Below the pieces are notes generated by a model that worked only from the letters and a program-made list of their open reading frames with translations, was not told the origin of the DNA and did no database searches. A program made the position numbers and the translations under genes. This document shows positions 1,960 to 46,599 of a stretch of DNA of 64,000 nt, in pieces; within the stretch, counting starts at the first letter, position 1; every line of letters begins with the position of its first letter. This DNA comes from Ancylonema sp. (lineage: Eukaryota), in assembly GCA_050230475.1 (NCBI GenBank), contig JBFLGF010000012.1, positions 62,001-126,000 of the forward strand, written 5' to 3'.

Positions 1960-3100
1960 GGAGGACCGTAGGCTATGAGTTGCAAGCATTGCCATGCTGC
2001 CTCCCTTTAAACCTTCGAGGGATCTACGGAAAAATGACGTAGATACCTCGAAGTTGCAAGAGGCGGAAGACAGCCTCACCGCCTTGCCAGATTGCCGACT
2101 ACCCAAGAAAATCTTGAACGCAATGAACATTTTTAGCACAACCCGGGCTGCAATAGTTTCTTTTCTTCTAGGGTGTCACACAGGTACTAATATGATTTTC
2201 CTCTGTCCCCTTCATGCCCTAACGCCCCTGCTTCTGCGCCGTGTCACCACAGTGATGTGCGGCAACATCCTGGCCTCATCCTCCCCGATGAGTCTTGACT
2301 TAATGTTATTATACGTCTTTTTCTGTCTCTTTTCACTTCCACCCCCAGGATGTGGGTTAGGGGTCCCAGGTCCTTCATCTTAAAATTCTGGCCCATTTCT
2401 TGCTTAAATCGTGCAATAACCGGCTATTGCCTGGTTGTCCACATGTATGCCCAGTATAATTCGGTTGGAACCAGATCCCCGAGTATAGATACATGTGTCC
2501 ATTTTTAATTGGTTAAATCCAGCACCTATCATGAAGGAGTGAAACATATTATTCCATATATTACTAGACTGATTTAATCCGTATAGTGCACCCAACATTT
2601 TTAATACCTTACCCTCAGTATTACCTTTAATATTCATATAAGGTGGTGTTTTCATATTTACTTCTTCCTCGAGCCTACCATGCACGAAGGCCATTACCAC
2701 ATCCATTTGTTCTAATTCACAGTCCTCTTGGTTGCTTATGGCCAGCAATAGGCTGATGTATGTACTATCTAATACAGGTGCGAATACTTCATTATAATCA
2801 ATACCTTCTTGTTGTAGAAATCCCTGAGCTACTAGCCTCACCTTATATTTTTCCATATCTCCATTTGGTTTATATTTGGTTTTAAATACGTATTTACACC
2901 CAACTGGCTTCTTACCTGGGGTTTGATCTACCACCTCGAAGGTGTTGAAAGCTTCCAGAGATTTAAGCTCGTCTTGGATTGCTGCCTCCCATTTAGGCCA
3001 GTCAGGCCTTTTGGAGGCCTGTGACACAGACAATGGATCGGAGGATTTAGTGGACTGAGCTGCGTTACAATACCCCGGATCCAAAGGGCCATTGAAACCA
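1960..3100 (-). mobile_element. Degenerate Ty1/copia reverse transcriptase fragment
   Basis: WEAAIQDELKSL, GCKYVFKTK, YKVRLVAQGFLQQEGIDYNEVFAPV, QMDVVMAFVHG, LYGLNQS; YVDD degraded to HVDN. Continues after a frameshift near 2404 as FKQEMGQNFKMKDLGPLTHILGVEV. Left boundary approximate. Confidence 0.92.
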
Positions 3101-4198
3101 GTTAAGTCTTCGAGGGAAGGTTTCCATTTTGTAGAGCTCTTCACATTTCCATCTTGCACTAACTGCGTTTGCTTCACAAACAATTGAAACACCTCATTGC
3201 ATTTCTCGTCTGCCTCCACAATTGAGGACCTCCTCATACTGAGAGCTTTCTTTCCCTTCCCATGTCCAGCACCTCCCTTCCACCCCCTCCTATGTTTTCT
3301 CTCCCTATCATTCACGTCTGACTTTACGGGTTCCTCTGCATCAGCTCTGCGGTCATGCGGTGTGTTGCAGTGCTTCCACGGGTTCCCCTTCGAGGCTGAT
3401 GGGGGGTCGGGTGCAGTGTGGGGGGGCATGCCAGAAGCCACTGCTGCTTCCCAGCTGTTGATGCTGGAGGTGAGAACTTTGGTGGCGCCGGCTCCCCGGG
3501 AAGCCGAGCGGCGGTGTTTGGCAGGATGGTCGCCGGGGCGGGCGGTGGCGGTTGTTAAGCCGTCGGGTCTGCTTAAACGCTGGTGCCTTCGCCTTCTATC
3601 AGCCTGATGGTCCTATAACCCCAAAAATTCTTCCTAGGAGATGAAAAAAGAAAGGTAGAAGCTCAGGTATTCTGCAGGAAATACAGCTATAGAGTATGTT
3701 CTGGCTATGAGTGAACAACTGGCTATCGACCCAGCAGATGAGAGCCAATTTCAGTTTTTTTATGCGCGAATAAGCGTATTTTTATTATTTTTATGGAAAC
3801 GCGTTGCAATTGAGGGGACTGTGGCTTTCAGTCTCAAGCTAGCCTGGATATTTTGGTGTACTTGCGCCAATTACCGATAAATTGGCGCAAGTACCACCTC
3901 TGCCGAGAGCGCAGAGTGCAGAACTCACCAGCACTGCTGCAACCTCAGCATCCTTGGCCCACTCCGTTCGTGACTTGTGTCGATCCATTTTCGGGCGAAC
4001 ATAGTAAGTCCTCCCGTAACTGAGAATGGTATCTGCAGGAAGCTTGAGGCGCTTACCAGTAGCTCCTTTCAAAATTTGTTCGGCAGAGGTTACAAAACAA
4101 TGCGGGAAACTGAGTATGACCTCTCCAACGGTTATCTCTTTTTGAACGTCCAGGATGCCACCGTCGGGCAGGATGATATGAAAAACGTGTTTTGACTC
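3100..4198 (-). CDS. DUF4228/PADRE-like protein (exons about 4198-3929 and 3612-3100; first exon unresolved; 3' end runs into copia sequence; possibly pseudogene)
   Basis: Minus frame reads HVFHIILPDGGILDVQKEITVGEVILSFPHCFV...LPADTILSYGRTYYVRP, the DUF4228 pattern. GTGAGT donor at 3928; phase-0 AG at 3614-3613; next exon ends in KWKPSLEDL, resembling the PADRE WxPxLxxIxE tail. Confidence 0.7.
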
Positions 4199-6134: not shown

Positions 6135-7338
6135 TGTCGGACAATAAACACTCGTGTGCTTATATGGTGAGAGTCGTGGCTTATACAAGAGAATATGCCT
6201 AATTAAGTTAAATGCGCTTAATTCGGTTTATTATGCTTATATAGTGAAAGGTGCTTATACGGTGAAATGCGCCCATAACATCGAAATGTTCGTATACGGT
6301 AGAATTAAAGCGTTACGGCATTTGCGGTCATTTATCCATGTTTGGCACATGAGTGGGTAGTGAACGAAGTTATTCCATTAGACACGTGTCTTGTCAGAAC
6401 GTATCACTAGTCCTTAAGTTTCGATTGACGACCGAAGGCCTTAGTTAGCTAAACATTGTTATTTCGCCGCCATTTACGGCACCATATTCGCTAGACTCTG
6501 ACACCAGGCGTACATGCAACACGTGACTGAGCAGACGGAGGAACACATCACTTGTTGCACCCACTACACTATGACATAGACACATAGGAAGATGCGGTGT
6601 CTTGAGAATATATTCCGATAGAGACAAATATGTGATAGATACCTCCTGTCCTTTATGTATCATGGGCGATCAATGGCGGAAGCCAGCAATGCTGCTGTGT
6701 GTTAGAATATGCTCTACTCCAGATATGCATTGCATCTAGCTCTCCTAGTAACATGCATGACGTAGCCATAGGTAATACTTGGCTATTAATGCATTAGAGG
6801 TAATGTCGGTGTGGCTGGTAGCCATTAGCGGTGCCGTAAGAAGATGTCGATCTGATAGGAACTGATTAGTATAAAAGATTGTAACAATTGTACTCAGAGC
6901 TAATTTGGTCTCAGTACGCCTCGGGAACCGCTGCTAAAACAACTTACCAAAATATCGTGTTTTGTGCGTTCGGCTGGGAATTAACCTTTTTGTCAAATCT
7001 CTGCAATCGAGTATTATCTTTTCACCCATTGAGTTCAATTCATACGCTCAGCATTATTCAGAATCGCATACTTTACATACAGTCCAAGGGCATCCCTTGC
7101 CTTAGGAAGACTAGAAAATGCATTTTGCCATTAAGTCGACACTTGTGATGGATAACAATGGCTTATGAGAATCGAATGTGAATGTGTATCCGACCTCGAC
7201 TTGGTCATGCTTCATAAGGATACATTCATGTGTAATAAAACGTCGCAATTCGCACGTGTGAAATGTATATATCGGCAAGATTCGTTATATGCAACCATTC
7301 GCACGTGAGACATGAGCACGACGCCATATGGTACGACA
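6135..7338 (+). mobile_element. Solo-LTR-like unit (1.2 kb) with 4-bp TSD ACCG
   Basis: Starts TGTCGG, ends ACGACA, ACCG on both sides (6131-6134, 7339-7342); shares GGGAACCGCTG, TTCGGCTG, CCTTGCC..AGG and TCGTTATA blocks with the ends of element 10896-17416. Confidence 0.85.
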
Positions 7339-9300: not shown

Positions 9301-10607
9301 TTACGTCGCTGATTACGGCGCCGTCAAGTTAGCCCTATTCAGTGATTGCTGGCTGATCGTGCGAATTCACTTCCGAATCAATCCCACCCCACCGAGTATG
9401 ACTACCGCTTCACGAGATCACGGTCCGCTCCAACCTAGCGCACGACTCCCACGTTCAATGTCGACATCTTCATGAATCGTACGATCCTTGGGCGTAGAAA
9501 CTGCCGTCAATGCTACAATGAAGTCGCAGCTGATTGAGATGTAAGTGGTATCATTGCAGTCATTTTCAGCTCGTTCCAGACAGAAAGATCCCTCAGTCGA
9601 TCAATACCATCTTCCAAAGATTCTCAGTAAGTCGCCAAGAAGATGCATTATGACATCGGGACCGCAAGGATGAGGCTGAGACAATTAGGGCGCGTGTGAT
9701 TGCTCGGGCTGAGACCGTGATCTCATGTTCTAAGTTTCCTTGTGCACTGAGCACGACACAAGGAAAATCTTGATGTTGAGCACTGAGCACGACAGTGCAT
9801 GCGCTGCAGCTCATTTACTAAAAGCGAGTGGATGTGACGAGTGGCTTGCCGACCTCCTGTTTTATCTGCACGTTTCTGGACTGTCTGACCGCCATACGCG
9901 TTGACTGCGGATCTCGTTTGCCACGGAGCGACAATCTCGTATGCGCGGCCAGCAAAACTGAAATTATTTGATAACAGAGAAAGAACTGTGTACAGTAAAT
10001 ACTCGTTATGGGCATAGCTTTGAAACATGGGAAATGTGTGCCTATAACAGGGTTTTTCTGTAACGTGTACATGTGTTATAGGCGCATTTGCAAGGGGCCT
10101 CAAGTCAGATGGGGAATCCAAAGTTTTGCTCCCAGATCACGGGAACGTCGTCCGTCATGTCGGTGTTCTTTTTTTGACATGCAATTTTGACTTATCGGCC
10201 GACTGGCGCGTGAGTTCATAGTTAACGACCACTCTGTTTAGCCACTCACTTTGAAAAGATTCCATTTTTCGCGAAAATAGTGATTTTTCCTTGGTTTATG
10301 ACCACTCTCTTTTTCATACATAACGAAAACATGAAACGATTCACTCACTTTGAGGCCTCGAAGGGAGTGGCACTGACTTTGATCGTGAGTGCTCGAGACA
10401 TACGTGGTACCCTCGCGGTGAGTTGCTCTCACGTGGGAAATGAATACATTTCGCCCGTGCTTTCGCGAAATATTACGCGCCATACCGAAAACGATCACTA
10501 GTGTGAGTCTCCGGGTAGCCTGCGTCTCTAGCTAATGTCGCTACTACAACACACTGTTCCCGCGACAAGGTGCGATCCAGCCACCCGCGTACTGCAAATA
10601 AATGGGG

Positions 10608-10895
10608 TCACCGCCGAGTCCGTGTGCTGCGGCAGTGCTATTGCAATGCGAGTAACTTGGAGGGTGCGCTTGGCACTAACCAAAATCTTCCCTTCCCATG
10701 GGAAAAAAATCATGGGCGATATCAGAGCCTAAACCCACCCCCCGTTGCCAATAAGTCAGGTCGTATAGGACCGCCTAGGGATGAAGGGTCTATAATCAAT
10801 AAATGGGAGCGGATGGGTGGGTTTTCATCGCACTTCTTAAAGTGCATGGCGTTCCCTCTAGCAAACCACAAGTCGGGGGAATCGGCACAGCAGGA
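10608..10895. repeat. Dispersed repeat interrupted by the gypsy element (resumes 17417-17510; uninterrupted relative at 21962-22325)
   Basis: TCACCGCCGAGTCC...AACCACAAGT aligns by eye to 21962-22234; GGAGCGTGCCTTA...TCAACCATA at 17421-17510 aligns to 22235-22325. Confidence 0.85.
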
Positions 10896-11846
10896 TGTCG
10901 TACTTAAAACGATCGTATGCCTAGACAATGATATATAGAGGAAAACAAGCGATAGTGCTTAAACAATGTATGTGCCTATACAACGATAGCTCTCGTTCGA
11001 ACGAATGTACGCGAGTTAATTAAGGTTACAGTATGCACCCGCGGGGGTACCTAACTTTACGTCTCTATTTGGAACGTGAACCAACCAATATTGGGGAATT
11101 TTAAGTTAGTTTCGGTGTTCTAACTAAGGTCTTAGTTAGAAATCGATCGCAAGACGCGCTCCGCCATTTACGGCGCCTGACAAGCTGACATTGTGTCGGC
11201 GGACTCTTGACAGACGGCACGTAGCTACAGTCCAGGAGTTACACCCGTGCTTGAACTACGCTTTGTAAAATAGACGTCCACGTGAATGGACAGAGTACTT
11301 CAAATATATGCACTTACGACAGTGCCAAAGTATTTGTAGTTTGATATCGATATATGCACTCGCTGCGATCATTTACAGACGCCAGCAATGCATTAGTATG
11401 AATCAGCTCATTCTTGCGGTAGCCATGCATTTTACCTAGTTGCAATATTGATGTATACGACGAGTACATTGTAATACTTGGCTAGGAATGCATTAGCCTA
11501 GATGGGTGCAGCCGCCTAGCGGTGCTGCGAAGAAGATATGCTGGCCAGGCGCAGGCCCAGGGTAGAGGCAGAGACTATATATCTTAGAAAGGTGCTTCTC
11601 AGACCTTAACAGGTCTTTGTAGACCTCGGGAACCGCTGAACAAATCTTGACTCGAACCATCGTGTATTAAGTATTTGTGAAGTGAATTCGGCTGGTGAGA
11701 TCATTGCAATTGAGTTCCTTGAATTTGGGAATTCTTAGAGATTTAATCATTATTGTTTCGAACACATTACGTTCAGTCCGAACGGCATTGCCTTGCCACA
11801 GGAAACTTACAAAGACCTGTTATTACGCTTTCGTTATAAAAAAAAA

Positions 11847-14000
11847 ATGACAACGATTGTAGTTGAGTTATACACAGGAGATGGAGGTAATGCGCAGCGC
11901 ATTTTCATGAAGGATGCACAGGTTGGCTGGAGAGCAATCCTGAATGATCCGCAACATCACCTTGGAGGGGAAGTAGCCCAATATGATTACATGGATACCC
12001 TCTACCATTTACTTGGGGGACAGGCACGTCGCCTATTGGACCTCTTCACGGACAAGTGGAGTTGGACTAAAGACGACAACCCCTAAATTCTGGAAGCCAT
12101 AGCCAGAGAGGAGGACCGAGCGGTTTGGAGAACGTACTACATGGAGAAAGCAGTCTTCAATCTGAACAGGGTGTACATGGTAAATAAGTCGGGTATGCCT
12201 ACTCGACCAGATTTGCTGCCCGATTCTATCCAGGAGGCAGCTGATTTGGAGGAATTCCTGGCCATCATCAGAGCTGCGTTCTAGATGACCTCGGCCGCTT
12301 TCTTTGAGGACTTGCACGCTTTTCGGGCGCAGCCGAGGGAGTCGTTGGTCAAGCTGGCCGACCGATTCGATGAGGTGGCGGAGCCACTCCTTACCGCTGG
12401 TCTGATGACGACACGTGGGCTGGCGCTTAACCTGCGAGAACACATCCCCCCTCTCACATCAAAAAGGCAACAAGAGGAGCCATGATGAGGGAGGACATGC
12501 GCCGCTTCAAGAAGGGAGATCCCCGGTGGACAAAGACGAGTTGCTAAAGATGGGCTCAAGATAGGCCTTCTTGCTGGGAGTTCGAGACGGAGCTACGAGC
12601 TGCAGGGCCTGACTCCCGACCCTCGTGACACTGAGATTGGGCAGCCAACGACGATTCCTCCCAAAGCTCCACCTCGTCCGATGGAGGACAGATTGGGCGG
12701 AAGGAACATCAAAGATCGTCTGGGCAGCAGACCGGATCATACCCCTGACATGAGGGAGTGCAACCAGTGCAAGAAGGCGGGGCACATTGCCAGGAACTGC
12801 CCTGAGCCACCTCGTGGTGGGCTCCCAGGCCCACCACCAGCTCGCACTTCTACGATTCCGCTTAGACAGTCTGGCCGGCACATAAGACAAATGGTGCGGT
12901 CTGTTGTGCGTGCAAGAAGCCAGGACATGTAGTGGCACAATGCTGGGCTACACACCCAGAACTCCTTCCCACCGATTTGCTGAAGCGGAGGCAAGCAACG
13001 ATGAACGTCAACAATCGGAAGCGAATCAAGGCATCTGAGTACACCAGTCCGAACTACCAATTCCAGGGCATGGCATTGACATACAATCGTGCGGCCACAG
13101 CAATGATGCAGCGGAGATCCACGCGACCCTCTGTGCCTACGCAACAAGCAAGGGAGTCTGTAGAGCAGAAAACCGCACGACGAGTGCATTTCTCCCCATC
13201 TGCAGCATCAGAAGTGCCAACAGTGGTCAACGTTACCGATCGGCGACAAGCTGACCCGCTAACCACCCCTCCTGAACCAGTAGTTTCATCTGAGGCGCCT
13301 AGAGTGCCGGACCAATACGCATATAAAGAAAGGTTACCTCAGTCTTTCCCCCCCCATGGCCTTCCGCTGTCCAGCTTGGAACCAGGCACTACGGATAGAC
13401 AATACCCTCCAACGCCGCTGTTTCCGGAACCACCAATGGGAGACCAAGAGGAGCTGCTGATGGAGACGCCGTTGCAGACGATGGCGCATCTGCGCGATGC
13501 AACACGGAACTTGCAACATCTGGTAGGGGACCTTGCTGCCAGCCTGTGGAGGAAAGCCACAGACCAAGAACGACATTTCCCTCAACAACACTTCCCCGTG
13601 GAGCGCGAGATTCTAGTACCCGCTGTAGCAGAAGCAGATCGACCTCGAGCGCACTCTACTCCCGTCTACATCTCCAACCAGGACGGCATCCTAGACGTGG
13701 AGGGCTATGTGCCGAAGGAGAGTATCCTGGACACGGGCGCCTCGAAGGTGATGCTTAGTAAGAAATTCGCTGCTGCGATGCAGATCCACTCTCAGGCACT
13801 CAAGAGGGGGGTGGAGTTCGTTACCGCCGCGGAGCAATCGAGATGCCGCTGGGCGTCACCAAAAATAAGTTGAAGTTCACGCTGGGACGAGGAACAGACA
13901 AGTTGTGCGTGGTGGAACTCCATGCCACTGCGATACTACCGCCTACGACGTGATTCTCGGGATGGAGTTCGTCACAGCAGTAAGGGGGGCGTACGACGCG
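11847..14000 (+). pseudogene. gag (two CCHC zinc knuckles) and aspartic protease of the gypsy element, frameshifted
   Basis: CNQCKKAGHIARNC (12759-12800) and CCACKKPGHVVAQCWATHPE (from 12902); ILDTGAS with DTG at 13730-13738; DVILGMEF near 13950. Confidence 0.88.
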
Positions 14001-14478
14001 CCTACACCGAGACGTTCACCTACCGCTGGAGTGATGGTGAGAGCGGACTTCAGCCTCATGCCATCTCGGCGCCCTGTCATACATCAACGCCGCCAGTAGT
14101 GGCCTACGCCTGCTTCGAGGGTCTTCTCAGCAGCGCAGCGGATCTGCAAGACGTGGTAGGAGAGGGAGACAACACCATCCCGGAGGACGACTCCTGGGGA
14201 TTTCACTCCTCTCCAACACAGCTGGCAGCGCAGCACAACTCAGTTTGCTGTCTCAGGCATGTGAGGCAGCGGATGCGGTAAGGGTGACTAAGGAGGTGAG
14301 GGGACTGGACCTGACACGAAGGGAAAATGCCGTGGTTAGGTTAGCAGCTGTCACCCCTCTTTCCCTTTCACCTTTGCTACCCACTTCCAAATGGTTAGGA
14401 GCAGAAGTAGAAGGAGCGTTCCCCATCAACACCGCGACCTGAAAATTTAGCGAACAGTCTAAGCGAGATGGCTTACAC

Positions 14479-15465
14479 GTGTTGGAACTGTTTGGTGGTG
14501 TCGGTCTTGGAGTACTAAGAAGCGCGCTGGCAGCAGGGTATACCATACGCTGTTACACATATGTGGATCGGGACGCTATCAGCCGCCGCATCGCTACTTC
14601 TGTTCTACGCGCCCTACAACAACAATACCCGACGCAGCTGAGAGACTCAACAATTGCATCGTTCGACAAGAGGCTGCCACAAAACATCAGCCAATGTTCC
14701 GCGACGTTTCTGACGCAGCTGATAACGCCCAACGGTCCAGTGGACCTTCTGGGGGGGAGCTGGGAGTGCCAAAGTGTGAGCCGCGCTGGACGACAGCGTG
14801 GTGCCATGGATGTACTTCTACGATCTGGTGCGCATCATCAATTTCTTCAAGAGATCAGAAATGGCTCAGGCTACGCCACTGGTCTACGTCCTGGAGAACA
14901 CCTACCCAGGGGAGAAACTCACCGCAGCTCTCAAGAAAGCTGGCGAGTTGGTCCAAGCATTCGTTGGTGCACCGGTGGTGGTGGATGCAGCAGATCTGGG
15001 CGCGGCCGCACATCGTGTCAGACTCTTCTGGTCCAACATACTGCAGCCTGCAATTTTACAAGCCACGGTGCCTACACTCATCTCCCCTTCCCCGCCCTTG
15101 AACACAATTCTAAAGGGGTACCACATTCCTACCATGCCAGGACACTCAGACCATTACCCTTTGCTTCACACAATATTGAGGGGGGTGTCAGGTTATGCAT
15201 GCCAACGGTGGTGTCATACCTTCGCTCCAGCGCCTACAGGCCAAAGGACAACGGCACACCTGGCGAGGGTGAGGTGTTCAACACGCATACAAACGTGTGG
15301 GAGGAACCGGATGCAGATGAGAAGGAGCTGCTCCTAGGCTACACGCTGGGAGACACAGCGGCTGCAAGGGTGTCCGACGAGGACCGCGCAGTGCGCTTGG
15401 GACGAGCCTTGGATGGCACTACTATGCGCTGGCTGGGGGCAATACTACATGCCAGTCAGGCATAG
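14479..15465 (+). pseudogene. DNMT3-like C5 cytosine methyltransferase domain inside the retrotransposon (two frameshifts)
   Basis: Motif I VLELFGGVG; motif IV VDLLGGSWECQ; motif VI YVLENT; motif VIII AAAHRVRLFWSN; motifs IX-X EKELLLGY..GDT...DRAVRLGRAL. Split over ORFs 14479..15465 and 14798..15337. Confidence 0.87.
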
Positions 15466-15811
15466 GAATCTCACCCCACCCAGCATTTGCCTACTCAGCC
15501 ATCTGGGGGGGGGGGGATGCATCCAGCGTACGCAGCCATAAACTACGTGGCAGAGCTTAGGGAAATGGTTGCTGCGGAGCCGTCCATGTTCCAAACTCCA
15601 GGAGGACTTTAGCGCAAGGCTGCCCAAGTGGTGGTAGCCGCACTACTGGCTTCAGAAGAGAGAAAGTTGGGTCTCTCCTCAAAACCCTCTAGGGTTTTGG
15701 AGAGCCTGAGGCGGAGGGGGGGAGAGTACGAGGTCCCCCCCTCAGAGAGACAAGCAGCCGACGAGGTTCAACATCGGTAGCAGCCTGCAGGAGAGAGACC
15801 AGGCACGGGTC

Positions 15812-16610
15812 TTGGCCATGTTGGACGACAACGTGGACAGATTTGCGTTCTCCCTTGAAGACATCAAGCCTGATGACTTCAAGGGGGAGCCAATGCAGAT
15901 CAATCTGAACTCCGATCAAGCAATTTTCAGGCCCCCGCACAAATTGGGGCAGGTGGAGTGGGATTTTGTGGAGGCGCAGTGTCGCAAACACGCTGGGCTT
16001 CATACAGCGGTCAAACCAATCGGCGTACGCGTCAGCCATGGTGGTGGTGCGTAAAAAGGACGCAGAGGGAAACTACACCGATTTCCGGCAATGCGGGGAC
16101 TACCGCCCGCTCAACATAGAGACAACATTGGATCGCTACCCCCTGCCGGGGATCGAGGACATCTTTAACCAGATGGGGGGGGCTGCAATTTTCTCCAAGC
16201 TGGATGTGCGCAACCGGGTAGAGGATCGGGGCAAGACGGCATTCTGGGGAGCCAATCGCATTCTATGGGAGTGGTTGGTGGTCCCCTTCGGACTTAAGAA
16301 TGCCCCTCCCTACATCCAGAGGCGCATGGACCAGGTGCTCAGGGACCTCCCCTTCTGCCGTTGCTACATAGACGACATCGTCATTGTGAAGTATTCAGCA
16401 ACATCTGGTCGCGCAACGTGGCGGAGCATGTCCAACATCTGGGCATGGTGTTCCAGCGGCTGCGGGAGGCGGGGCTAAAGGTTCATCCGGGGAAATGTGT
16501 CTTCGGAGCAGAAAACATCGACTTCCTGGGGCATCGCATCTCAGCCAACAAGCTGGAGCCCCAGCAAGACAAGATAGCAGCGGTGCGAGACCTTCCAGCG
16601 CCAACAAATC
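15812..16610 (+). pseudogene. Ty3/gypsy reverse transcriptase, frameshifted
   Basis: VVVRKKD, RQCGDYRPLN, YPLPGIEDIF, FSKLD, KTAF, PFGLKNAP, YIDD (16365-16376), LKVHPGKC, FLGHRI. Confidence 0.95.
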
Positions 16611-17651
16611 TAGATCGTGGACATGCCACAAACACTAAGGTACAACTTTCCCATTTTGTTACTGTGATTCGGGATATTCTCAATCATGAGTCCGATGAAC
16701 ATGATAAACTTGGAGAAATCCTTCTCGGGTCGGCCACTTTGTGGTGAGAGTCATAACGGCTGTGTTGGTGTCATGAGTCTATATCGTAACTCATTGCCAA
16801 AGGAGCTCCTGACAAGGGAATGGATCCACATACGTAAAACATGATTATAAGGTGTTTTAACTTTTCGGATCACCAAAAGTTCAACACGGGAAAGGCAACT
16901 CCAAGATGGATTGCATGGCCCACAACATCACTCCTAGTTGGATGATGCAATAGTTAATTCACACCAAAGTGCACATTTGGTTTGGGATTAATTGATTGGC
17001 CAAATTTGTCAAGAGAAGCTACAACTTAATTTACCAATTTGAGGTGCAATATTGATGATTTGACACATGTGGTTACAGGCCCATCATCAAGGATTGTAGG
17101 AGCCCTTTCCGAAGATGGTTCCAACCATCACTATGCACAGTGTGCAAAGCTGAGTGGCGCAGGAGCTTGACTCATCTGTGGGGGGAGAGAAAATAATGGT
17201 TGTCATGTTGTCGATGCATACGAGATGCTTGCAAGTGATGTATATTATTGCGCACGTGTGCTGCCGCATATATGCCACGACGCGTCTTGATGTGATTACA
17301 TTCTTGACAAGGGATTCACATGGAATTCGCACGTGTGGACACATACAACAACACTTGTGCTCGTTATAATCTTTAATCGCACGTGTGAACATGGCACGAT
17401 GGAATATAACACGACAAGGACACGGAGCGTGCCTTAGATATGTACTTGACACATAATGGTCACAAGTTCGCGTTCCTAGAGGTGCACAAGGTGCTTCGCA
17501 TCAACCATATATCAATTAAGTCAAAAAGTCTAAGAGATCAGAATTTGATACACTGTGGCCTGTATACTTTTCTCCATATAAAATTTATTGTGGTCCTGCC
17601 CATTTGCTCCGCTAGATGCATCAAATATTTAATCTACACCAGCCATACATG

Positions 17652-18416
17652 TGTCGGTCCGTGTATGATCGTGCCTATATGGCAATTGTGCCGCCGGTTG
17701 CAACCAAGAACTAGTGCACGCGGTAGTGGTGCTAGGAGTTTTGCGATATAGTTGTTTGCTATTATTGTAGACGATGACATGCTAGTAAGGTACACTTGAT
17801 GTACAGTACGTAGCATAGTCATGTTGGCGGGAAGTGTCACACGTAGTTGCAATCATCATGCGTGCGTGAATGGTAGTTTTAGCACCAGACAACAAGCTAG
17901 TGTGACGTTCGGTCCCTGCAACGGCTCAAGACCTTACATCACACGTTGTTACTCTATAGCCCTTATCGTGTTAGAGTGTGCCCCATTGGTGTATAACATT
18001 ATCCTCGCATAAAGTGTGCATTTTTATCGCGTTATGTGCATCTTGGTTGGTATTTGCTTAGATCTCTAATTACGCGTCGTTTGAATTAATGATCGTGCAA
18101 TTCGGCGATAGATCGAGCTTACGATAAAACTTAGAGTATTCACATCATCATAGTTTCGTACACTTAAGTACAGTAACCCAAGCAAACACCTTGCCTTGGA
18201 TAAATCTTAAGTTATACTCATTTTGCTCATGGCAGAGTACATATGTATGAGTTGTGCCTGTGCACTCGATGGTGTATGGTGTAGATGAGTGAGAGAGATG
18301 CATTCTGATTGCACACATGGCATGGATATGCATGGTAGTGCGGTGGTACGAGTGAATATGTCGTTGGTGGGATAGCATTACACGTGTGTGAGTAGACGAT
18401 GCTAGATAGCACGACA
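17652..18416 (+). mobile_element. Shorter, diverged solo-LTR-like unit with 4-bp TSD CATG
   Basis: TGTCGG start, GCACGACA end, CATG at 17648-17651 and 18417-18420; contains CCTTGCC and a CACGTGTG..CGATG.TAGAT end block like the other copies. Confidence 0.75.
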
Positions 18417-19940
18417 CATGCCATGTGTCACTTGTGTCAGACATCGATGCTCTGACACACAGTGTCGTGCGCCCAACGCAACCTGCCACACATCTAAAGT
18501 CAAATATTCACGGACATTACCATACGTTGAGTTTCCCCTTTAAATACATATCTTAAAAGTACTCCCGCTAAATCAATGAAGCGAAACGAAACTCCCGTAT
18601 AACGAAACCCACTAATTGCTAAGACGAAAAACTTCCTTTATTAAAGTAAGTATGGTATTGTTCCATCATGGCCCCTCTAAAATTGGCTGAGCTATCTAAG
18701 GTATTCCCCTTTCGCGAAATCTATCCAAGCCATAAATAAAACGATCTCCATCAAACATTTCTTCCGAAGAGTGTGCTTGAACGTAGTTCCTTTTCAAATT
18801 TGATGTAGCAAGAGTAATCGGCCACGTGCATGATAGCATGTCTGAGCCGTGAAGTGTGAAGTGATTGCAATGAAATATGGAGCAACACGCTTGCATGCAC
18901 AAGATCTTCCAATATAAAATGACACTTGACAACATAGAGAATCGAAGCATCAATGAGGAGCTAAGGGTTTTGGTGTCGAACTCAACGATACACCTATTTG
19001 AAGGATCTGCGAATTGGCGACGGGAACATGAAAATATGCTTAGTGTTTGCAAAATATGTGAATTTGGGTTTGCTCTTACACAATAGATCAAACCAAGATA
19101 ATGTTTACAACGACTTATATCCAAGAAGGTTTGAGTGTCCCTTGCCAACTCTTGCCTCCTCTCGCCATAACAAGAAGAGCTCCAATGTTGAGAAATACTC
19201 CAAATGCTTGTATCTTGTAGATGGGATTTGAGTACATGCATCGAATGTGAGGCGTACCTACCTCACCTAGTTAAAAGTACATGAGTGGATACACATACGG
19301 ATGCTTGCTCATGACACACACTTGCTCATGACAGACAACAGTGGCTCAATGTAGCTTTTTGTTAGGGCCAATCTTTTTTCAATGCCGAGTCTCTTTCCAA
19401 GCGACGAATTTATATTTCATCCGGCCCACACCAATTCATCGCACTTGGAGTGCACTCGAACTCCACTACGTTTATTTGTATAACACGTGTCTAATCTCAC
19501 CCGAAGTTCCCATGAAATGTGAGGATTTATTTTTTTTCCCAGTGGAAGGTCCGGTTTTTTTTGTTTTGTTTTAATCACGAGTACAGTTTGGTATTTTTAA
19601 ATCTCTTCATCTATCTTCACGTCTGACCCTACGAAACTCAATCCGAATTACGTCTGGACCAGTCTATCTTTACACGTGTGTAGTCCAACGGGTTGAACAA
19701 AATTCACCAAGTGCAAGGCAAGAGGTCCGTCCACCCATCCCTAGAGACTAGTCGCCTAGTCGACTGGTGACATGCAATATGTATGAGTAGCTAAAACTTC
19801 TCCTAACATCCTTCCACACTTACTTGTGCACCATTCACTAAAGATTGTTATCCCGCCTCATGCAAGCCACACATCATCCGACACAATATTGCAAGTACTC
19901 TGATGCCCCACTACCACACACTCTGTGTACTCATTCTCAG

Positions 19941-20651
19941 CTACGTGCGCTGCTCTTCTATAGTTGGAAGACGAGGCTGCCGTTTGTCACCTTCCTCGAA
20001 ATCATCTAAGCCTGCTTGGAGAGTTGGAACCGAGGTGTAGACAGATGTCTGATCGCCCCAGGAGGACCCCCTTTCCCTTATGGTGTGCTCTAAGACACAC
20101 TGAGGGACACACTTGTGGAACATGCTTCCAGACAAGCAGTCTGGCTGAGGAGGGGAGGGTGGGCACACTAGAGGTAGAGAGGACCCGGGCACAGGCCTCT
20201 GAACAGGTATAAAAACTGGTGTTGGCGCAGGGAGAACTCGAGAAGAGTTTCTGTCTAAAGATGTGGCTCGGGACAAGGTTGGGGGTTCTACAAAACAAAC
20301 AGGACGAGAGCGGAAGAGATCGCCTGTACAGGAAATAGGATGTCGTGGACTCCAGTCACTATCCACGTCGCTCTCCCGTTGGTAGGTGGTTGAGGCAGAT
20401 GGATGAGGCCATGAGAAAGGGGTTGCTTTGGGAGTTTGGTCCGGGTCCTGTCCTGGTGCAATGCAATCTGCATCTTCTGGCGGGTTCGAACTGCGAAATC
20501 GGGAGCTGGAGATGCAGGTAAGTCGAGAAGTCGAGAAACTGCCCGATATCCTTCCGCAGGACGCAGCAGTTTCTGACGAGTCAGGACGGACCGTAGAGCG
20601 CACCTGCAGGTCCTCCACCGCAGAATGGCACTGGAAATCGAGGACGCCCAT
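19941..20651 (-). CDS. Hypothetical Ser/Pro-rich protein ending RQPRLPTIEE (possibly the last exon of a longer gene)
   Basis: 236-codon ORF, low complexity, no recognisable domain. Confidence 0.45.
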   Translation of the reverse strand: MGVLDFQCHSAVEDLQVRSTVRPDSSETAASCGRISGSFSTSRLTCISSSRFRSSNPPEDADCIAPGQDPDQTPKATPFSWPHPSASTTYQRESDVDSDWSPRHPISCTGDLFRSRPVCFVEPPTLSRATSLDRNSSRVLPAPTPVFIPVQRPVPGSSLPLVCPPSPPQPDCLSGSMFHKCVPQCVLEHTIRERGSSWGDQTSVYTSVPTLQAGLDDFEEGDKRQPRLPTIEEQRT

Positions 20652-21757
20652 CGGTAATGTTAAGGCAGCGCCCGGTCAATCATAGAGCGCGGTCTCGCAT
20701 ATTGACCCTGTAGCCAACAAAACGAAGTAAGTGTGGAGTCCGACCGTGCCAAACTAATGTGAGGTGTATGATGGGAATTTCAATGCCTCGCAGTGCAGAT
20801 CGTTACCGTCAAGCCAAGGTTTTCCTGCTCCAGTAAAGTTTTCTTTTTCCCAGTGCAAGCCCGTTTCTATGCAATCTTTCTTCGCCGTGTTCGGAACCGT
20901 GACGACATTACACCTGGTCAGTATTCGACCGAATTGTCCGTTACCATTTTAGGCGTGGCAATGCTTTCCCAACTCCCTTTTTAAACCCGGAATACCGTCT
21001 TTCTGCGTACCCTGCTTCGAAGCTAAAATTTACTCGTCATGCCCAGTCTATGTGCCAGTCTATGTGCCATCTCCTGTCCTCGGCTGGGGATGGACCATTG
21101 GCACGGAAGACGACCAACATGAAGGAGGGATGAGCTGGAAAACGAATAAAGACACGTATCCGAGTGGCAAACGACGAAATGACGGTCGGGAGTATTTTGT
21201 TGGAGATGGACACACACAAAAGCGGGGGATGGGCGACGATGGACGAGCCTATCCATCCCAACTTTGGACATCCCAACTCGCAACCTGAACTCAATTGTGC
21301 CACCTTGCAGACCAGTTCAGGAAAGTCCGTAAGATGCCGCTTGCTAACGGAATACACTGGTTGCCAGTTTGGGGAATATTTTCTTACCGGAAGAATCGGG
21401 CTGGGAAGGATGGCTGGTCGCCCGCACGGTAGGCGATTAGGCTGTGTCGGACCGATTTCCACCTTCACCTCATCCCGTATGCACGGTTCTGAGCGAAGTT
21501 TTACTGGCAACTGCCATGCCCTCCCTTCAGGACGTCAATCCATACCTTTTTCAAAAAGATGAGAATGATGACGAGCCTATGGTGACGTAAAACCGACAAG
21601 TTGGCGCTCGGTGCGAAAATGTCCGTAATCACCTTGAAAACGACTTGACATGGAACATTCCATAACTTGCCTCCACCTAGTTTCTTAAATCTGGAGGCCA
21701 TTTTCGTTTTCTGGTCGTTCCGCTGCATCCGCGTTGTGAGACCTTTTCGAAAGTATN

Positions 21758-21947: not shown

Positions 21948-22776
21948 CATCTTTCATTGGTTCACCGCCGAGTCCGTGTTGCTGTGCCGATGTTATTGCA
22001 ATGTGAGTAACGAGGAGGGTGGGCGTGGCATTAACCAAAATCTTCCCTTCCTAAGGGAAAAAGTTAATGGGCGATATGAGAGCCTAAATCCACCCCCCGT
22101 TACCGATAAGTCACGTCGTATAGGACCGCTCATGGATAAAGGGTCTATGATCAATAAATGGGGGCGGATGGGTGGGTTTTTATCGCGCTTTTTAAAGTGC
22201 ATGGCGTTCGCTCTAGCTAACCACAAGTAGGGGGACGTGGAGCGTGCCTTACATATGTACTTGACTCTAAAAGGTCGCAAATTCGCGTTCCTAGAGGAGT
22301 ACAACGTGCTTTGCGTCAACCATAAGTGGATGTTAGACACTGCTGCCAATGAGGAGCAGGCTTCTCGACGGGCTGGAATTTCCTAATAGACTCCTGTTTG
22401 GGCCACAGTAGAGAGGGTCGCTGAGGCGTCACCTTTGCGTGCACTTGTCCGCACAACCTAAAAGACATAACATTTATGGCTGCACCCGAGACTGGATACT
22501 CCAATGCCAAAAACGGACTCGCCACCCAAGACTAGACTCTACACCGCAAACCATTGCACATTGCATAAGGCATCTCTAGGGATGGGTCGATGGAGACCAG
22601 TCGGCACTAGGCCTGTGGTAAGCATGAGTCCAAGGCAAGAGGTTGAATGTCAAGGACAAGGGTATGTCATCGGATTATTTCCTACATGATAAATGGCTGG
22701 TATCCATATTTTGTTCTAGTTATGTAGAGTTTGCCATGAGATGCATCAAATATTTAATCTACACCAGCCATACATG

Positions 22777-23541
22777 TGTCGGTCCGTGTATGATCGTGCC
22801 TATATGGCAATTGTGCCGCCGGTTGCAACCAAGAACTAGTGCACGCGGTAGTGGTGCTAGGAGTTTTGCGATATAGTTGTTTGCTATTATTGTAGACGAT
22901 GACATGCTAGTAAGGTACACTTGATGTACAGTACGTAGCATAGTCATGTTGGCGGGAAGTGTCACACGTAGTTGCAATCATCATGCGTGCGTGAATGGTA
23001 GTTTTAGCACCAGACAACAAGCTAGTGTGACGTTCGGTCCCTGCAACGGCTCAAGACCTTACATCACACGTTGTTACTCTATAGCCCTTATCGTGTTAGA
23101 GTGTGCCCCATTGGTGTATAACATTATCCTCGCATAAAGTGTGCATTTTTATCGCGTTATGTGCATCTTGGTTGGTATTTGCTTAGATCTCTAATTACGC
23201 GTCGTTTGAATTAATGATCGTGCAATTCGGCGATAGATCGAGCTTACGATAAAACTTAGAGTATTCACATCATCATAGTTTCGTACACTTAAGTACAGTA
23301 ACCCAAGCAAACACCTTGCCTTGGATAAATCTTAAGTTATACTCATTTTGCTCATGGCAGAGTACATATGTATGAGTTGTGCCTGTGCACTCGATGGTGT
23401 ATGGTGTAGATGAGTGAGAGAGATGCATTCTGATTGCACACATGGCATGGATATGCATGGTAGTGCGGTGGTACGAGTGAATATGTCGTTGGTGGGATAG
23501 CATTACACGTGTGTGAGTAGACGATGCTAGATAGCACGACA
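22777..23541 (+). mobile_element. Duplicate of solo-LTR-like unit 17652-18416
   Basis: Inside the 5125-bp-offset duplication. Confidence 0.75.
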
Positions 23542-25065
23542 CATGCCATGTGTCACTTGTGTCAGACATCGATGCTCTGACACACAGTGTCGTGCGCCCA
23601 ACGCAACCTGCCACACATCTAAAGTCAAATATTCACGGACATTACCATACGTTGAGTTTCCCCTTTAAATACATATCTTAAAAGTACTCCCGCTAAATCA
23701 ATGAAGCGAAACGAAACTCCCGTATAACGAAACCCACTAATTGCTAAGACGAAAAACTTCCTTTATTAAAGTAAGTATGGTATTGTTCCATCATGGCCCC
23801 TCTAAAATTGGCTGAGCTATCTAAGGTATTCCCCTTTCGCGAAATCTATCCAAGCCATAAATAAAACGATCTCCATCAAACATTTCTTCCGAAGAGTGTG
23901 CTTGAACGTAGTTCCTTTTCAAATTTGATGTAGCAAGAGTAATCGGCCACGTGCATGATAGCATGTCTGAGCCGTGAAGTGTGAAGTGATTGCAATGAAA
24001 TATGGAGCAACACGCTTGCATGCACAAGATCTTCCAATATAAAATGACACTTGACAACATAGAGAATCGAAGCATCAATGAGGAGCTAAGGGTTTTGGTG
24101 TCGAACTCAACGATACACCTATTTGAAGGATCTGCGAATTGGCGACGGGAACATGAAAATATGCTTAGTGTTTGCAAAATATGTGAATTTGGGTTTGCTC
24201 TTACACAATAGATCAAACCAAGATAATGTTTACAACGACTTATATCCAAGAAGGTTTGAGTGTCCCTTGCCAACTCTTGCCTCCTCTCGCCATAACAAGA
24301 AGAGCTCCAATGTTGAGAAATACTCCAAATGCTTGTATCTTGTAGATGGGATTTGAGTACATGCATCGAATGTGAGGCGTACCTACCTCACCTAGTTAAA
24401 AGTACATGAGTGGATACACATACGGATGCTTGCTCATGACACACACTTGCTCATGACAGACAACAGTGGCTCAATGTAGCTTTTTGTTAGGGCCAATCTT
24501 TTTTCAATGCCGAGTCTCTTTCCAAGCGACGAATTTATATTTCATCCGGCCCACACCAATTCATCGCACTTGGAGTGCACTCGAACTCCACTACGTTTAT
24601 TTGTATAACACGTGTCTAATCTCACCCGAAGTTCCCATGAAATGTGAGGATTTATTTTTTTTCCCAGTGGAAGGTCCGGTTTTTTTTGTTTTGTTTTAAT
24701 CACGAGTACAGTTTGGTATTTTTAAATCTCTTCATCTATCTTCACGTCTGACCCTACGAAACTCAATCCGAATTACGTCTGGACCAGTCTATCTTTACAC
24801 GTGTGTAGTCCAACGGGTTGAACAAAATTCACCAAGTGCAAGGCAAGAGGTCCGTCCACCCATCCCTAGAGACTAGTCGCCTAGTCGACTGGTGACATGC
24901 AATATGTATGAGTAGCTAAAACTTCTCCTAACATCCTTCCACACTTACTTGTGCACCATTCACTAAAGATTGTTATCCCGCCTCATGCAAGCCACACATC
25001 ATCCGACACAATATTGCAAGTACTCTGATGCCCCACTACCACACACTCTGTGTACTCATTCTCAG

Positions 25066-25776
25066 CTACGTGCGCTGCTCTTCTATAGTTGGAAGACGAG
25101 GCTGCCGTTTGTCACCTTCCTCGAAATCATCTAAGCCTGCTTGGAGAGTTGGAACCGAGGTGTAGACAGATGTCTGATCGCCCCAGGAGGACCCCCTTTC
25201 CCTTATGGTGTGCTCTAAGACACACTGAGGGACACACTTGTGGAACATGCTTCCAGACAAGCAGTCTGGCTGAGGAGGGGAGGGTGGGCACACTAGAGGT
25301 AGAGAGGACCCGGGCACAGGCCTCTGAACAGGTATAAAAACTGGTGTTGGCGCAGGGAGAACTCGAGAAGAGTTTCTGTCTAAAGATGTGGCTCGGGACA
25401 AGGTTGGGGGTTCTACAAAACAAACAGGACGAGAGCGGAAGAGATCGCCTGTACAGGAAATAGGATGTCGTGGACTCCAGTCACTATCCACGTCGCTCTC
25501 CCGTTGGTAGGTGGTTGAGGCAGATGGATGAGGCCATGAGAAAGGGGTTGCTTTGGGAGTTTGGTCCGGGTCCTGTCCTGGTGCAATGCAATCTGCATCT
25601 TCTGGCGGGTTCGAACTGCGAAATCGGGAGCTGGAGATGCAGGTAAGTCGAGAAGTCGAGAAACTGCCCGATATCCTTCCGCAGGACGCAGCAGTTTCTG
25701 ACGAGTCAGGACGGACCGTAGAGCGCACCTGCAGGTCCTCCACCGCAGAATGGCACTGGAAATCGAGGACGCCCAT
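25066..25776 (-). CDS. Duplicate of hypothetical ORF 19941-20651
   Basis: Identical translation. Confidence 0.45.
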   Translation of the reverse strand: MGVLDFQCHSAVEDLQVRSTVRPDSSETAASCGRISGSFSTSRLTCISSSRFRSSNPPEDADCIAPGQDPDQTPKATPFSWPHPSASTTYQRESDVDSDWSPRHPISCTGDLFRSRPVCFVEPPTLSRATSLDRNSSRVLPAPTPVFIPVQRPVPGSSLPLVCPPSPPQPDCLSGSMFHKCVPQCVLEHTIRERGSSWGDQTSVYTSVPTLQAGLDDFEEGDKRQPRLPTIEEQRT

Positions 25777-27057
25777 CGGTAATGTTAAGGCAGCGCCCGG
25801 TCAATCATAGAGCGCGGTCTCGCATATTGACCCTGTAGCCAACAAAACGAAGTAAGTGTGGAGTCCGACCGTGCCAAACTAATGTGAGGTGTATGATGGG
25901 AATTTCAATGCCTCGCAGTGCAGATCGTTACCGTCAAGCCAAGGTTTTCCTGCTCCAGTAAAGTTTTCTTTTTCCCAGTGCAAGCCCGTTTCTATGCAAT
26001 CTTTCTTCGCCGTGTTCGGAACCGTGACGACATTACACCTGGTCAGTATTCGACCGAATTGTCCGTTACCATTTTAGGCGTGGCAATGCTTTCCCAACTC
26101 CCTTTTTAAACCCGGAATACCGTCTTTCTGCGTACCCTGCTTCGAAGCTAAAATTTACTCGTCATGCCCAGTCTATGTGCCAGTCTATGTGCCATCTCCT
26201 GTCCTCGGCTGGGGATGGACCATTGGCACGGAAGACGACCAACATGAAGGAGGGATGAGCTGGAAAACGAATAAAGACACGTATCCGAGTGGCAAACGAC
26301 GAAATGACGGTCGGGAGTATTTTGTTGGAGATGGACACACACAAAAGCGGGGGATGGGCGACGATGGACGAGCCTATCCATCCCAACTTTGGACATCCCA
26401 ACTCGCAACCTGAACTCAATTGTGCCACCTTGCAGACCAGTTCAGGAAAGTCCGTAAGATGCCGCTTGCTAACGGAATACACTGGTTGCCAGTTTGGGGA
26501 ATATTTTCTTACCGGAAGAATCGGGCTGGGAAGGATGGCTGGTCGCCCGCACGGTAGGCGATTAGGCTGTGTCGGACCGATTTCCACCTTCACCTCATCC
26601 CGTATGCACGGTTCTGAGCGAAGTTTTACTGGCAACTGCCATGCCCTCCCTTCAGGACGTCAATCCATACCTTTTTCAAAAAGATGAGAATGATGACGAG
26701 CCTATGGTGACGTAAAACCGACAAGTTGGCGCTCGGTGCGAAAATGTCCGTAATCACCTTGAAAACGACTTGACATGGAACATTCCATAACTTGCCTCCA
26801 CCTAGTTTCTTAAATCTGGAGGCCATTTTCGTTTTCTGGTCGTTCCGCTGCATCCGCGTTGTGAGACCTTTTCGAAAGTATTAACCCGGCGCTATAGCGA
26901 AATCGGAGAAATCGTGGATCAACCGGTCCATAGTACCTCAGGGCGACTGACATCTCGCAGCGAACCTTCACGATCGCGCTATACCGCAACAAATTAGACC
27001 CTTGAGCCAACACATCTGTTTTCTAATGCAGCGATTTTGTGTCCATTCGATCCGGTA

Positions 27058-31391: not shown

Positions 31392-32209
31392 TATTAAAGA
31401 CACGGCTTTAATGTTCCCGGCCCTTGAGGATAGTCAGAAATGAAGATCGTGTCTGGTTTTGACTTGAAAATGAATCATGAAGACTTGATAGACTGAGCAC
31501 ATCATTCTTTAATTCGTTATGATGTGAGTTATATGCAAGGATCTAGTACAACAGCTGCGTAGTACGTCCCACGAATTACCGAGCCCAATGTAATGACATG
31601 TTTACCCATGACTGATACCCTGGATTTCATTTTTTAATGCTTGCATGTAAACTTGGGTCTCCATGATCATTTGAATCGGTGTCGAATTTCGATAACAACT
31701 ACATTGTTTGTACTCGAGTACACATTTATACAAAACTTTCCTACAAAAAAAACTCGAGTAATACACACGCATTACCCTCATTTCCCATAAACATTTCCTG
31801 GACAGATTATCAACGATGCCCTATTTTACGCCTCCTAGACAAGGAAGTCAAAGACATGCACTCCCGCATGATCTCTAACTACAAACCAACGCCAACTGCT
31901 CTCTCCCACCAGGTACCCATGCTCGCCCATGTTCATTCGAAAGGGCAACTCCACGGTGTCGCCTGAAGGCAGCGTCCACAACGTCACTTTCCCGTCCGCT
32001 CCCGCGGACACCACGGTGACGTTCCCCTTTCCCGGTTGCTGCGCGTCGAACTCTAAGGCGTCGCACGGGGTACCGCAAACTTCAAGCTCCAAGAGGGCTC
32101 CCATTCGCTCTCCTTTATATGCGTCCCAAACTCGAAAGTGGGCGGTGCGGACGGAGCTATTTGGGCTCTACACAATGAGACCAGGGGTGGGGGGGGGGGG
32201 GGATTTCAA
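31392..32209. repeat. 0.82-kb duplication (copy at 32212-33029) flanking the N at 32210
   Basis: Appears identical except poly-G length; offset 820. Confidence 0.95.
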
Positions 32210-32654
32210 NATATTAAAGACACGGCTTTAATGTTCCCGGCCCTTGAGGATAGTCAGAAATGAAGATCGTGTCTGGTTTTGACTTGAAAATGAATCATGA
32301 AGACTTGATAGACTGAGCACATCATTCTTTAATTCGTTATGATGTGAGTTATATGCAAGGATCTAGTACAACAGCTGCGTAGTACGTCCCACGAATTACC
32401 GAGCCCAATGTAATGACATGTTTACCCATGACTGATACCCTGGATTTCATTTTTTAATGCTTGCATGTAAACTTGGGTCTCCATGATCATTTGAATCGGT
32501 GTCGAATTTCGATAACAACTACATTGTTTGTACTCGAGTACACATTTATACAAAACTTTCCTACAAAAAAAACTCGAGTAATACACACGCATTACCCTCA
32601 TTTCCCATAAACATTTCCTGGACAGATTATCAACGATGCCCTATTTTACGCCTC

Positions 32655-41760: not shown

Positions 41761-42586
41761 AAAAATGTCAGTTCCCCTCACCCTAGTTCAACCGCCTGAT
41801 TGAGCTTGCAAAAAGTCGAGAAGGAGAGTAGGTGTGAACACCATTTGTGGTTTTTATGCAAAGGAGTCGAGAGAAAGTGGCACAAAGGTTGGCCATTCAA
41901 ACGATGGCCATCAGATCTAGTACGTGGCAAGGCAAGGAACAAGCTCCCACATTGAACTGCGTCACTTCTAGCTTGAGTAGGCCGTGTTGCCTTTATTGTT
42001 GTCGATGACCTGTTGTCACAGGGTCCTCCCAAGAAGTGGCAATAGTCCCTGGAGAACCTTGACCTTTAAAAAAAATCAATCATTGAGGGAGTCATTTTTT
42101 GTACTATCCCTACCCATGCTCGCCACACGAAAATGTGATTTGAGTGCATTAAATTGTTGTCTTAAAAAAAACAAGATTGATATCAAAATCGAAATCAGAA
42201 TCAAAGTACAGCTAGCCTAGTCAAAAGTTTCAAAAACCTAGAAGCATTTCGAACACGCCAAACATGTGCAATTATAGGGTTATTGATGAAAATGTATTCA
42301 TGTATTGCAAGGGCCGCTATGTTCCACCTTACTCATATGCAACTTCATGTCTTGACGTTGACAAAAAAAAAATGGAAATCCTTTTAGAATCCAATCATTC
42401 CTAGGTCCAAGACCGTTCCCTCCCGTGATGCGACTTTGGAGATCATCCTAGAAACACTGAAAGTTCAAAGAATTGTATAACCTAGGCATGTAGACTCATG
42501 AGAAAGTAAGGGAATGGTCAGGTGTGTCTCATAAGATCACAGAATGGACACTAGGATTACAACATGGGAACCACGTTTTACACAAG

Positions 42587-46580: not shown

Positions 46581-46599
46581 TTAGTACTAGGCAATCAAT

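Follow-up and report, generated by a model that had tools for sequence, protein, structure and literature searches.

A stretch of 64,000 nucleotides from Ancylonema sp. (GenBank assembly GCA_050230475.1, contig JBFLGF010000012.1, positions 62,001 to 126,000; hereafter the window) carries a decayed copy, with an internal deletion, of a Ty3/gypsy-type retrotransposon that had, in all probability, a first open reading frame (ORF1) encoding Gag, a protease (PR) and a DNA methyltransferase (DNMT) domain of the DNMT3 type. Relatives with intact frames are predicted to produce the enzyme along with Gag, and it would likely methylate the new DNA copy of the element or its landing site. We hold this account with good confidence and set out below the evidence for it, the observations that count against it, and three competing explanations. 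Positions are given throughout in window coordinates, on the + strand unless stated otherwise.

The cytosine-5 (C5) methyltransferase domain spans positions 14458 to 15462 and is split over three frame pieces (Table 1). A preliminary description of this DNA had placed six methyltransferase motifs in order between a DTG protease and a YIDD reverse transcriptase (RT), and all six were recovered there: motif I (ELFGGVGLG, 14485-14511) and motif IV (GGSWECQSVSRAG, 14752-14790) in frame 1; motif VI (VLENTYPG, 14888-14911) and motif VIII (AAAHRVRLFWSN, 15002-15037) in frame 2; and motif IX (EKELLLGYTLGDT, 15319-15357) and motif X (RAVRLGRALDGTTMRW, 15385-15432) again in frame 1. They are flanked by the protease motif ILDTGAS (13724-13744) and the RT motif YIDD (16365-16376). 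The window domain has the canonical order I, IV, VI, VIII, IX, X, together with the catalytic Cys, the Glu of the ENV motif and the RxR arginines. Compared with intact proteins by tblastn, the window pieces were 66-76% identical across the whole domain (E values, 2e-45 to 3e-124), a likeness far above chance.

Relatives were collected with a word-indexed search, in which a 340-residue frame of the window returned seven proteins that were 811-1204 residues long (E, 2e-101 to 2e-68) and an eighth of 1476 residues, and with an exhaustive HMMER search, which gave 552 cluster representatives at an E value of ≤1e-3 (224 at ≤1e-10), many of them with intact ORFs of 1200-2400 residues. Streptophyta are the commonest source in the nearest cluster, and no relative was found in two scans of metagenome contigs. 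The seven nearest relatives (P0001-P0007) consist of Gag, knuckle, protease, linker and DNMT; P0001-P0006 stop a few residues past motif X, at the place of the window's TAG (15463-15465), and P0007 breaks off earlier. Architectures were scanned with Pfam in 32 long representatives. Three (P0028, P0056 and P0064) had the order of the window (PR-DNMT or DNMT-RT), 25 had RT and/or RNase H before the DNMT and/or integrase (IN) after it, often with a PHD finger behind the integrase, and the remaining 4 had no retroelement domain at an E value of ≤1e-5. Two single ORFs hold the longer series of domains. In P0189 (2433 amino acids), zf-CCHC (292) is followed by PR (767-864), DNMT (1018-1347), RT (1533-1693), RNase H (1758-1886), IN (2011-2175) and PHD (2386-2429); P0185 has a knuckle, DNMT (777-953), RT (1252-1411), RNase H and integrase, with no PHD match. 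The Closterium proteins P0180, P0028 and P0056 carry the window's order, named members of which come from Closterium sp. NIES-65, NIES-53, NIES-68 and NIES-54. Complete relatives (P0047, P0075, P0096, P0189 and others) end in a PHD finger after the integrase, and extra domains occur in some family members (G-patch in P0075 and P0094, Tudor in P0096).

The arrangement with DNMT between protease and RT is called class A here, and the arrangement RT-RNaseH-DNMT-IN-PHD class B. Class B polyproteins (metagenome and assembly proteins such as P0047, P0075, P0102 and P0008) belong to the same DNMT lineage (E values down to 1e-27 from the window ORF), share its motifs, including the alternation of Pro and Glu described below, and, where complete, likewise end in a PHD finger behind the integrase, but their DNMT lies between RNase H and integrase, whereas that of class A lies between protease and RT. 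A quick maximum-likelihood tree of 84 DNMT domains (unrooted; window read with X at the breaks) placed the window domain as sister to P0001 (SH-like approximate likelihood-ratio test [SH-aLRT] support, 98) within a Gag-PR-DNMT clade (99), with P0011/P0187-P0189 as the sister group of that clade (100); the labelled class A and class B rows fell on opposite sides of one branch (SH-aLRT, 100). The same split was seen in an unrooted RT tree of 38 rows, only 3 of them class A (SH-aLRT, 99; the label “noDNMT” in that tree denotes a row not scanned for the domain).

In the window and six relatives (P0001-P0006), the frame stops right after the DNMT; the sister clade P0187/P0189 reads through into RT. 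This bears on the earlier proposal of one ancestral polyprotein, which had been drawn from a single TGA between the linker frame and the methyltransferase frame. The TGA is present and corresponds to Arg in relatives, where Gag, protease and DNMT share one frame; in the nearest clade, however, the polyprotein is not a single ORF. The recurrence of the same order in intact ORFs supports the DNMT as an integral part of the element: the order PR-DNMT-RT is found in intact polyproteins, and no separate insertion boundaries were seen around the domain, in agreement with the initial view that the retrotransposon carries it.

The DNMT3 assignment is based on profile and fold matches, the trees being unrooted and limited to family domains. 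A profile of 30 short family members matched 57 PDB sequences at an E value of ≤0.01; the best 29 of these were all DNMT3A, 3B or 3C (9.6e-25 to 4.7e-19), followed by six DRM-type chains (3.7e-14 to 6.7e-11) and, further down, M.HhaI (3.9e-8), HaeIII and DNMT2 (~1e-5), with DNMT1 missing from the matches at that threshold. An AlphaFold model of P0167, a member of the 90%-identity cluster of P0002, had a mean predicted local distance difference test score (pLDDT) of 85.5 and a predicted template modelling score (pTM) of 0.79; its top Foldseek matches were all DNMT3A/B/C (E, ~1e-14; template modelling [TM] score normalised to target, 0.74-0.80). Both approaches thus rank DNMT3A/B/C first, as the preliminary description had led us to expect, and support a domain of DNMT3 type by profile and by modelled fold. 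The catalytic domains of animal DNMT3A/3B/3C (PDB 2qrv, 6w89, 8tci and others), which provide the best profile and fold matches, have the AHRxRxFWxN form of motif VIII and the motif IX-X tail in common with the window family. Identity to them is ~17%, and motif IV differs, reading Trp-Glu-Cys-Gln in the family versus Ser-Pro-Cys-Asn in DNMT3A. The order of motifs I to X is unrearranged in the window and the family, unlike that of plant DRM. A Pfam search of the nearest relatives found neither a PWWP nor an ADD domain, and the matches of two profile searches were all family members, with no named host enzyme among them.

Of 80 family domains, 79 retain the catalytic Cys and 79 the ENV Glu; the two RxR arginines are retained in 79 and 77, respectively, and the FxGxG motif for S-adenosylmethionine (SAM) is conserved to the same degree (77-79 of 80 domains for the conserved sites). 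The residues around the catalytic Cys in motif IV read ECQ in 42 domains, PCQ in 28 and otherwise in 9, with a gap in 1; both the Glu and the Pro forms occur inside the RT-RNaseH-DNMT-IN class. Mean pairwise identity among eight close relatives was 0.70 for the DNMT, 0.62 for the protease and 0.51-0.52 for gag and the linkers, making the DNMT the best-conserved part of ORF1. Together, the kept residues and this identity argue for a working domain that would be catalytic, and intact relatives likely still use it. If so, the protease would free the DNMT from the polyprotein, the DNMT may travel in the particle or the pre-integration complex, and it would work even with Glu instead of Pro ahead of the catalytic residue. 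The methylation would then serve the element, for example, by mimicking the host's gene-body CG marks or by damping the element's own expression.

The insertion (10896-17416) has TG...CA ends with 6-bp inverted termini (TGTCGT/ACGACA) and is bordered by a 4-bp duplication, AGGA. Its flanks recur without it elsewhere in the window: positions 10602-10880 resemble 21956-22235 at 87%, and positions 17418-17509 resemble 22233-22324, contiguous with the first, at 85%. The element is thus bounded by a target-site duplication, as first described. Repeat boundaries at 10896 and 17416 were also set by contigs of public runs (breaks at 10893-10896), and X1 contigs span the two insertion junctions, with 1 difference at one and none at the other. 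Two kinds of joint, belonging to other copies, were found in X1 and X2 contigs, one linking 17416 to 10896 with 2 letters between them (CA, 2 letters, TG) and the other linking the end of terminal region A (~11807-11813) to the start of terminal region B (17188-17203). These joints suggest split direct repeats in the order A-coding-B-A-B, of which the window copy would have been reduced to A-coding-B. This layout is met here in an element whose relatives carry a DDE integrase. An ordinary long terminal repeat (LTR) model, with B+A as the LTR, was rejected for the window copy because this, set against the empty site, opens with the start of A and finishes with the end of B and has the inverted TGTCGT/ACGACA and the target duplication.

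The window element runs gag, protease, DNMT, stop, truncated RT. Its Ty3/gypsy-type identity, as originally called, is supported by Pfam matches to zf-CCHC, aspartic protease and RVT_1 (a second RVT_1 frame fell just under the cut-off; E, 1.2e-6) and by the RT-RNaseH-IN order in relatives; knuckle, PR and RT are seen in the window, RNase H and integrase are deleted, and the full order is present in P0185 and P0189.

Table 1. Features of the retrotransposon copy and of its insertion site in the window
Feature	Position	Strand	Description or evidence
Left target-site duplication, AGGA	10892-10895	+	Same 4 bases after the element at 17417-17420
5' terminal region A, starts TGTCGT	10896-11811	+	Non-coding, highly repeated in reads; contig joints
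gag, N-terminal part	11847-12800	+	ATG 11847; first CCHC zinc knuckle 12759-12800; tblastn P0002/P0001 11862-12800; Pfam zf-CCHC E 2.8e-4
Rest of gag, aspartic protease, linker	12878-14254	+	Second knuckle 12902-12943; DTG 13724-13744; tblastn; gag-asp_proteas E 2.3e-6, Asp_protease_2 E 3.5e-5
In-frame TGA	14440-14442	+	Arg in relatives; alignment with relatives
DNMT piece 1	14458-14805	+	Frame 1; motifs I and IV, Glu-Cys-Gln; tblastn, alignment
DNMT piece 2	14822-15184	+	Frame 2; motif VI ENT and motif VIII AHRVRLFWSN; tblastn, alignment
DNMT piece 3	15190-15465	+	Frame 1; motifs IX and X; ORF1 closes at TAG 15463-15465, as in relatives
RT, three frame pieces	15752-16612	+	15752-15988, 15993-16385, 16403-16612; RVT_1 E 8.3e-10; tblastn with P0189 residues 1437-1719 of 2433
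3' non-coding stretch behind internal deletion	16613-17187	+	Loose ends of other copies before 16613
Purine run GGGGGGAGAGAAAA	17180-17193	+	Sequence
3' terminal region B, ends ACGACA	17188-17416	+	Contig joints
Right target-site duplication, AGGA	17417-17420	+	Sequence
Second copy of flanking repeat without insertion (empty site)	21956-22324	+	Similarity

At least four frame changes interrupt ORF1 of this copy: tblastn alignments to P0002 and P0001 covered 11862-15462 in frames 3, 2, 1, 2 and 1 at 37-76% identity, and several frame changes lie between 13830 and 14250. The RT lacks 7 residues at 16214 (a 21-base gap), and its homology ends at 16612, residue 1719 of 2433 in P0189; relative to that protein, ~714 codons of RT-RNaseH-IN-PHD are lost. 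Contigs of other copies diverge from the window copy before 16613. Given the frame changes, the stop at 14440, the RT gap and the missing RNase H and integrase, the copy reads as dead, unless some of its small lesions arose in assembly, and the inactivity ascribed to it at the outset fits the sequence. Exact-match X1 contigs reach each of the 30 bins across 14380-15500, those with the stop and both frame changes among them, in pieces of 37-57 letters, which are too short to certify single lesions; bins without cover in X5, X2 and X7 carry no information. At some sites, every X1 contig differs from the window, and a base is left out at 12576 in five of five.

The window also contains direct duplications that are 100% (or 99.8%) identical: 17614-21756 with 22739-26881, 40368-42586 with 42653-44871, and 31392-32209 with 32212-33027. 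Two of the three pairs adjoin single Ns (21757 and 32210), and the duplications look like artefacts of assembly or haplotype joining. The empty-site copy of the flank sits within such a duplicated block.

Words of the element were found in public runs of one organism and in glacier, ice and other metagenomes (several studies), and none of the runs listed as containing them was an RNA run. In X1, 24,886 contigs were placed, and the summed contig depth of the element's interior was hundreds to thousands of times that of single-copy flanks; summed depths are not a copy number and support only a highly repeated family. The family is highly repeated in one organism and in glacier or ice metagenomes. 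Taken with the Closterium relatives, this occurrence points to a zygnematophyte-like alga as the probable host.

Only three families of retrotransposons with their own cytosine methyltransferase were found in the literature searched. They are a Gypsy-DNMT3 in Klebsormidium nitens and DIRS and long interspersed nuclear element (LINE) cases in Symbiodinium (de Mendoza 2018; PMC5890265), in agreement with the preliminary description, which named charophyte algae and dinoflagellates as known sources of such elements. The relevant portions of PMC12344493 and of bioRxiv 10.64898/2026.05.21.726589 repeat only de Mendoza 2018, and literature searches turned up nothing further on DNMT3-bearing retrotransposons in Closterium or on names for such elements.

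KnitGypsy-Dnmt3 (PMC5890265) and the window element are both Ty3/gypsy-type elements of streptophyte algae with an unrearranged DNMT3-type domain in the coding region and under constraint. KnitGypsy-Dnmt3 is described there with DIRS-like repeats in the order A-coding-B-A-B despite its gypsy domains, an arrangement that the joints of the window family fit. According to the authors' rebuttal (PMC5890265), its DNMT shares one ORF with RT and RNase H; in the window clade, the Gag-PR ORF closes with the DNMT, and a stop codon separates it from RT. Hosts differ as well, K. nitens for KnitGypsy-Dnmt3 versus Closterium for the window's relatives, with reads from glacier or ice samples. The contrast with KnitGypsy-Dnmt3 is drawn from its published description. 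SymbioDIRS-Dnmt3 likewise has a DNMT3-type domain inside a retrotransposon polyprotein; it is a DIRS element with a tyrosine recombinase in a dinoflagellate host, an independent capture according to the authors, and its domains produced de novo CG methylation in yeast (PMC5890265). The kind of element, a rare one, is thus already known from the Gypsy-DNMT3 of K. nitens; what the window family adds is a DNMT that closes the Gag-PR frame, a Glu-Cys motif, its range of hosts and its abundance.

Several observations weigh against an element-borne, active DNMT3-type enzyme. The preliminary description had proposed a hidden Markov model search with PF00145 as a check, and this succeeded in part: the window's own DNMT pieces gave no match, even at an E value of ≤10, while five of the seven nearest intact relatives scored above the gathering cut-off of 22 bits (of the other two, one scored 20.6 bits and one gave no match). 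Further scores were 34.0 (P0185), 23.5 (P0180), 44.8 (P0187), 43.8 (P0188) and 24.8 (P0189) bits. The window pieces fail because the domain is cut in three, which is not a failure of the family. In phmmer searches of PDB sequences, the matches of the window itself stayed below threshold: 27 of 28 for the middle DNMT piece were DNMT3A/B/C (best E, 0.065), and both ends of the 340-residue frame matched 4onj/4onq (E, 0.37). These two entries carry the title “DNA methyltransferase”, and we take them to be plant DRM. No LTR pair was detected: 10881-11870 and 16600-17417 were not alike by blastn, even when short words were used. Observed/expected CpG was 0.78 in the element and 0.79 in the rest of the window, so that composition gives no sign of a special methylation history. 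Some of the small frameshifts could be assembly errors, given the 100%-identical duplications beside single Ns. C5 methyltransferases near-universally read Pro-Cys in motif IV, and the window and all 11 aligned class A rows read Trp-Glu-Cys-Gln. Finally, in the only published test of a gypsy-borne DNMT3, KnitGypsy-Dnmt3 gave no methylation in yeast, a result that its authors call inconclusive (PMC5890265).

The yeast result and the Glu beside the catalytic Cys, found in 42 of 80 domains and in 11 of 11 class A rows, would also suit a pseudo-enzyme, that is, a DNMT-like domain that keeps the fold and binds DNA or SAM without methyl transfer, as would the low PF00145 scores of 20-45 bits. The model for such a structural, targeting or regulatory module is DNMT3L, which serves DNMT3A in this way. 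We regard this as the most serious competitor, though an unlikely one: the residues that a pseudo-enzyme would be free to lose (the catalytic Cys, the Glu of ENV, the two RxR arginines and FxGxG) are kept in 77-79 of 80 domains, and no part of ORF1 is better conserved than the DNMT.

It is improbable that the copy is not dead at all, its small frameshifts and stop having been introduced when a highly repeated family was assembled or polished, and ORF1 being intact at the locus. The sites where every X1 contig departs from the window, such as 12576, and the other assembly oddities of the window would be accounted for in this way, but the lesions are many and varied (indels, a stop for Arg, the 21-base RT gap and the loss of ~714 codons), and exact-match X1 contigs were found in every bin across 14380-15500, in pieces too short to prove each site. 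The reading that a host DNMT3 gene or pseudogene came to lie by accident in or beside a retrotransposon, through nested insertion or mis-assembly, is already contradicted and can be given next to no weight: artefact-like 100% duplications beside Ns and frameshifts exactly around the domain would fit it, but a large number of separate intact ORFs show the gag-PR-DNMT(-RT) order (among them P0001-P0007, P0185, P0187-P0189 and Closterium proteins of four strains), separate boundaries are absent, linkers on both sides align with relatives, and X1 contigs bridge both insertion junctions.

The window otherwise resembles a eukaryotic nuclear genome, with WD40 genes, a copia RT and a mitochondrial carrier found by Pfam. 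The copia-type RT (RVT_2; E, 2.2e-45; 2404-3612, - strand) marks another retroelement. A gypsy RT relic lies at 53221-53370 (+), with a stop inside its LDLRSGY motif, and is touched by an inverted repeat pair (46589-46826 versus 53224-52995; 77%). Short stretches at 48239-48850 and 6772-6933 are 72-92% like the A region and may be remnants of related elements. Neighbouring long frames (37368-38222 and 40020-40982, +) encode a PHD finger and an ORC/Cdc6-type AAA lid, presumably an ORC1-like host gene of the plant kind.

For annotation, these results mean that Pfam overlooks the DNMT domain in broken copies and scores it near the cut-off even in intact ones. A retrotransposon-borne cytosine methyltransferase inverts the usual view of methylation as a host weapon, and in the literature found, the activity of a gypsy-borne DNMT3 has never been demonstrated. 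The window links a dead copy to a large family that looks alive, with intact ORFs and with named members in Closterium, a laboratory alga, which makes three questions testable: whether a Glu-Cys DNMT3 is active, whether placement in the Gag ORF has a dose effect and whether the element marks its own new copies. A bolder proposal, which we put forward only tentatively and think rather doubtful in full, is that a hyper-abundant Ty3/gypsy lineage of zygnematophytes produces, in the dose of Gag and as the last domain of Gag-PR, an active Glu-Cys enzyme of the DNMT3 type and integrates via the TG...CA ends of split direct repeats. Such enzymes might then rank among the main sources of de novo methylation in their genomes, and Closterium could serve as a tractable model in which to test self-methylation of new cDNA.

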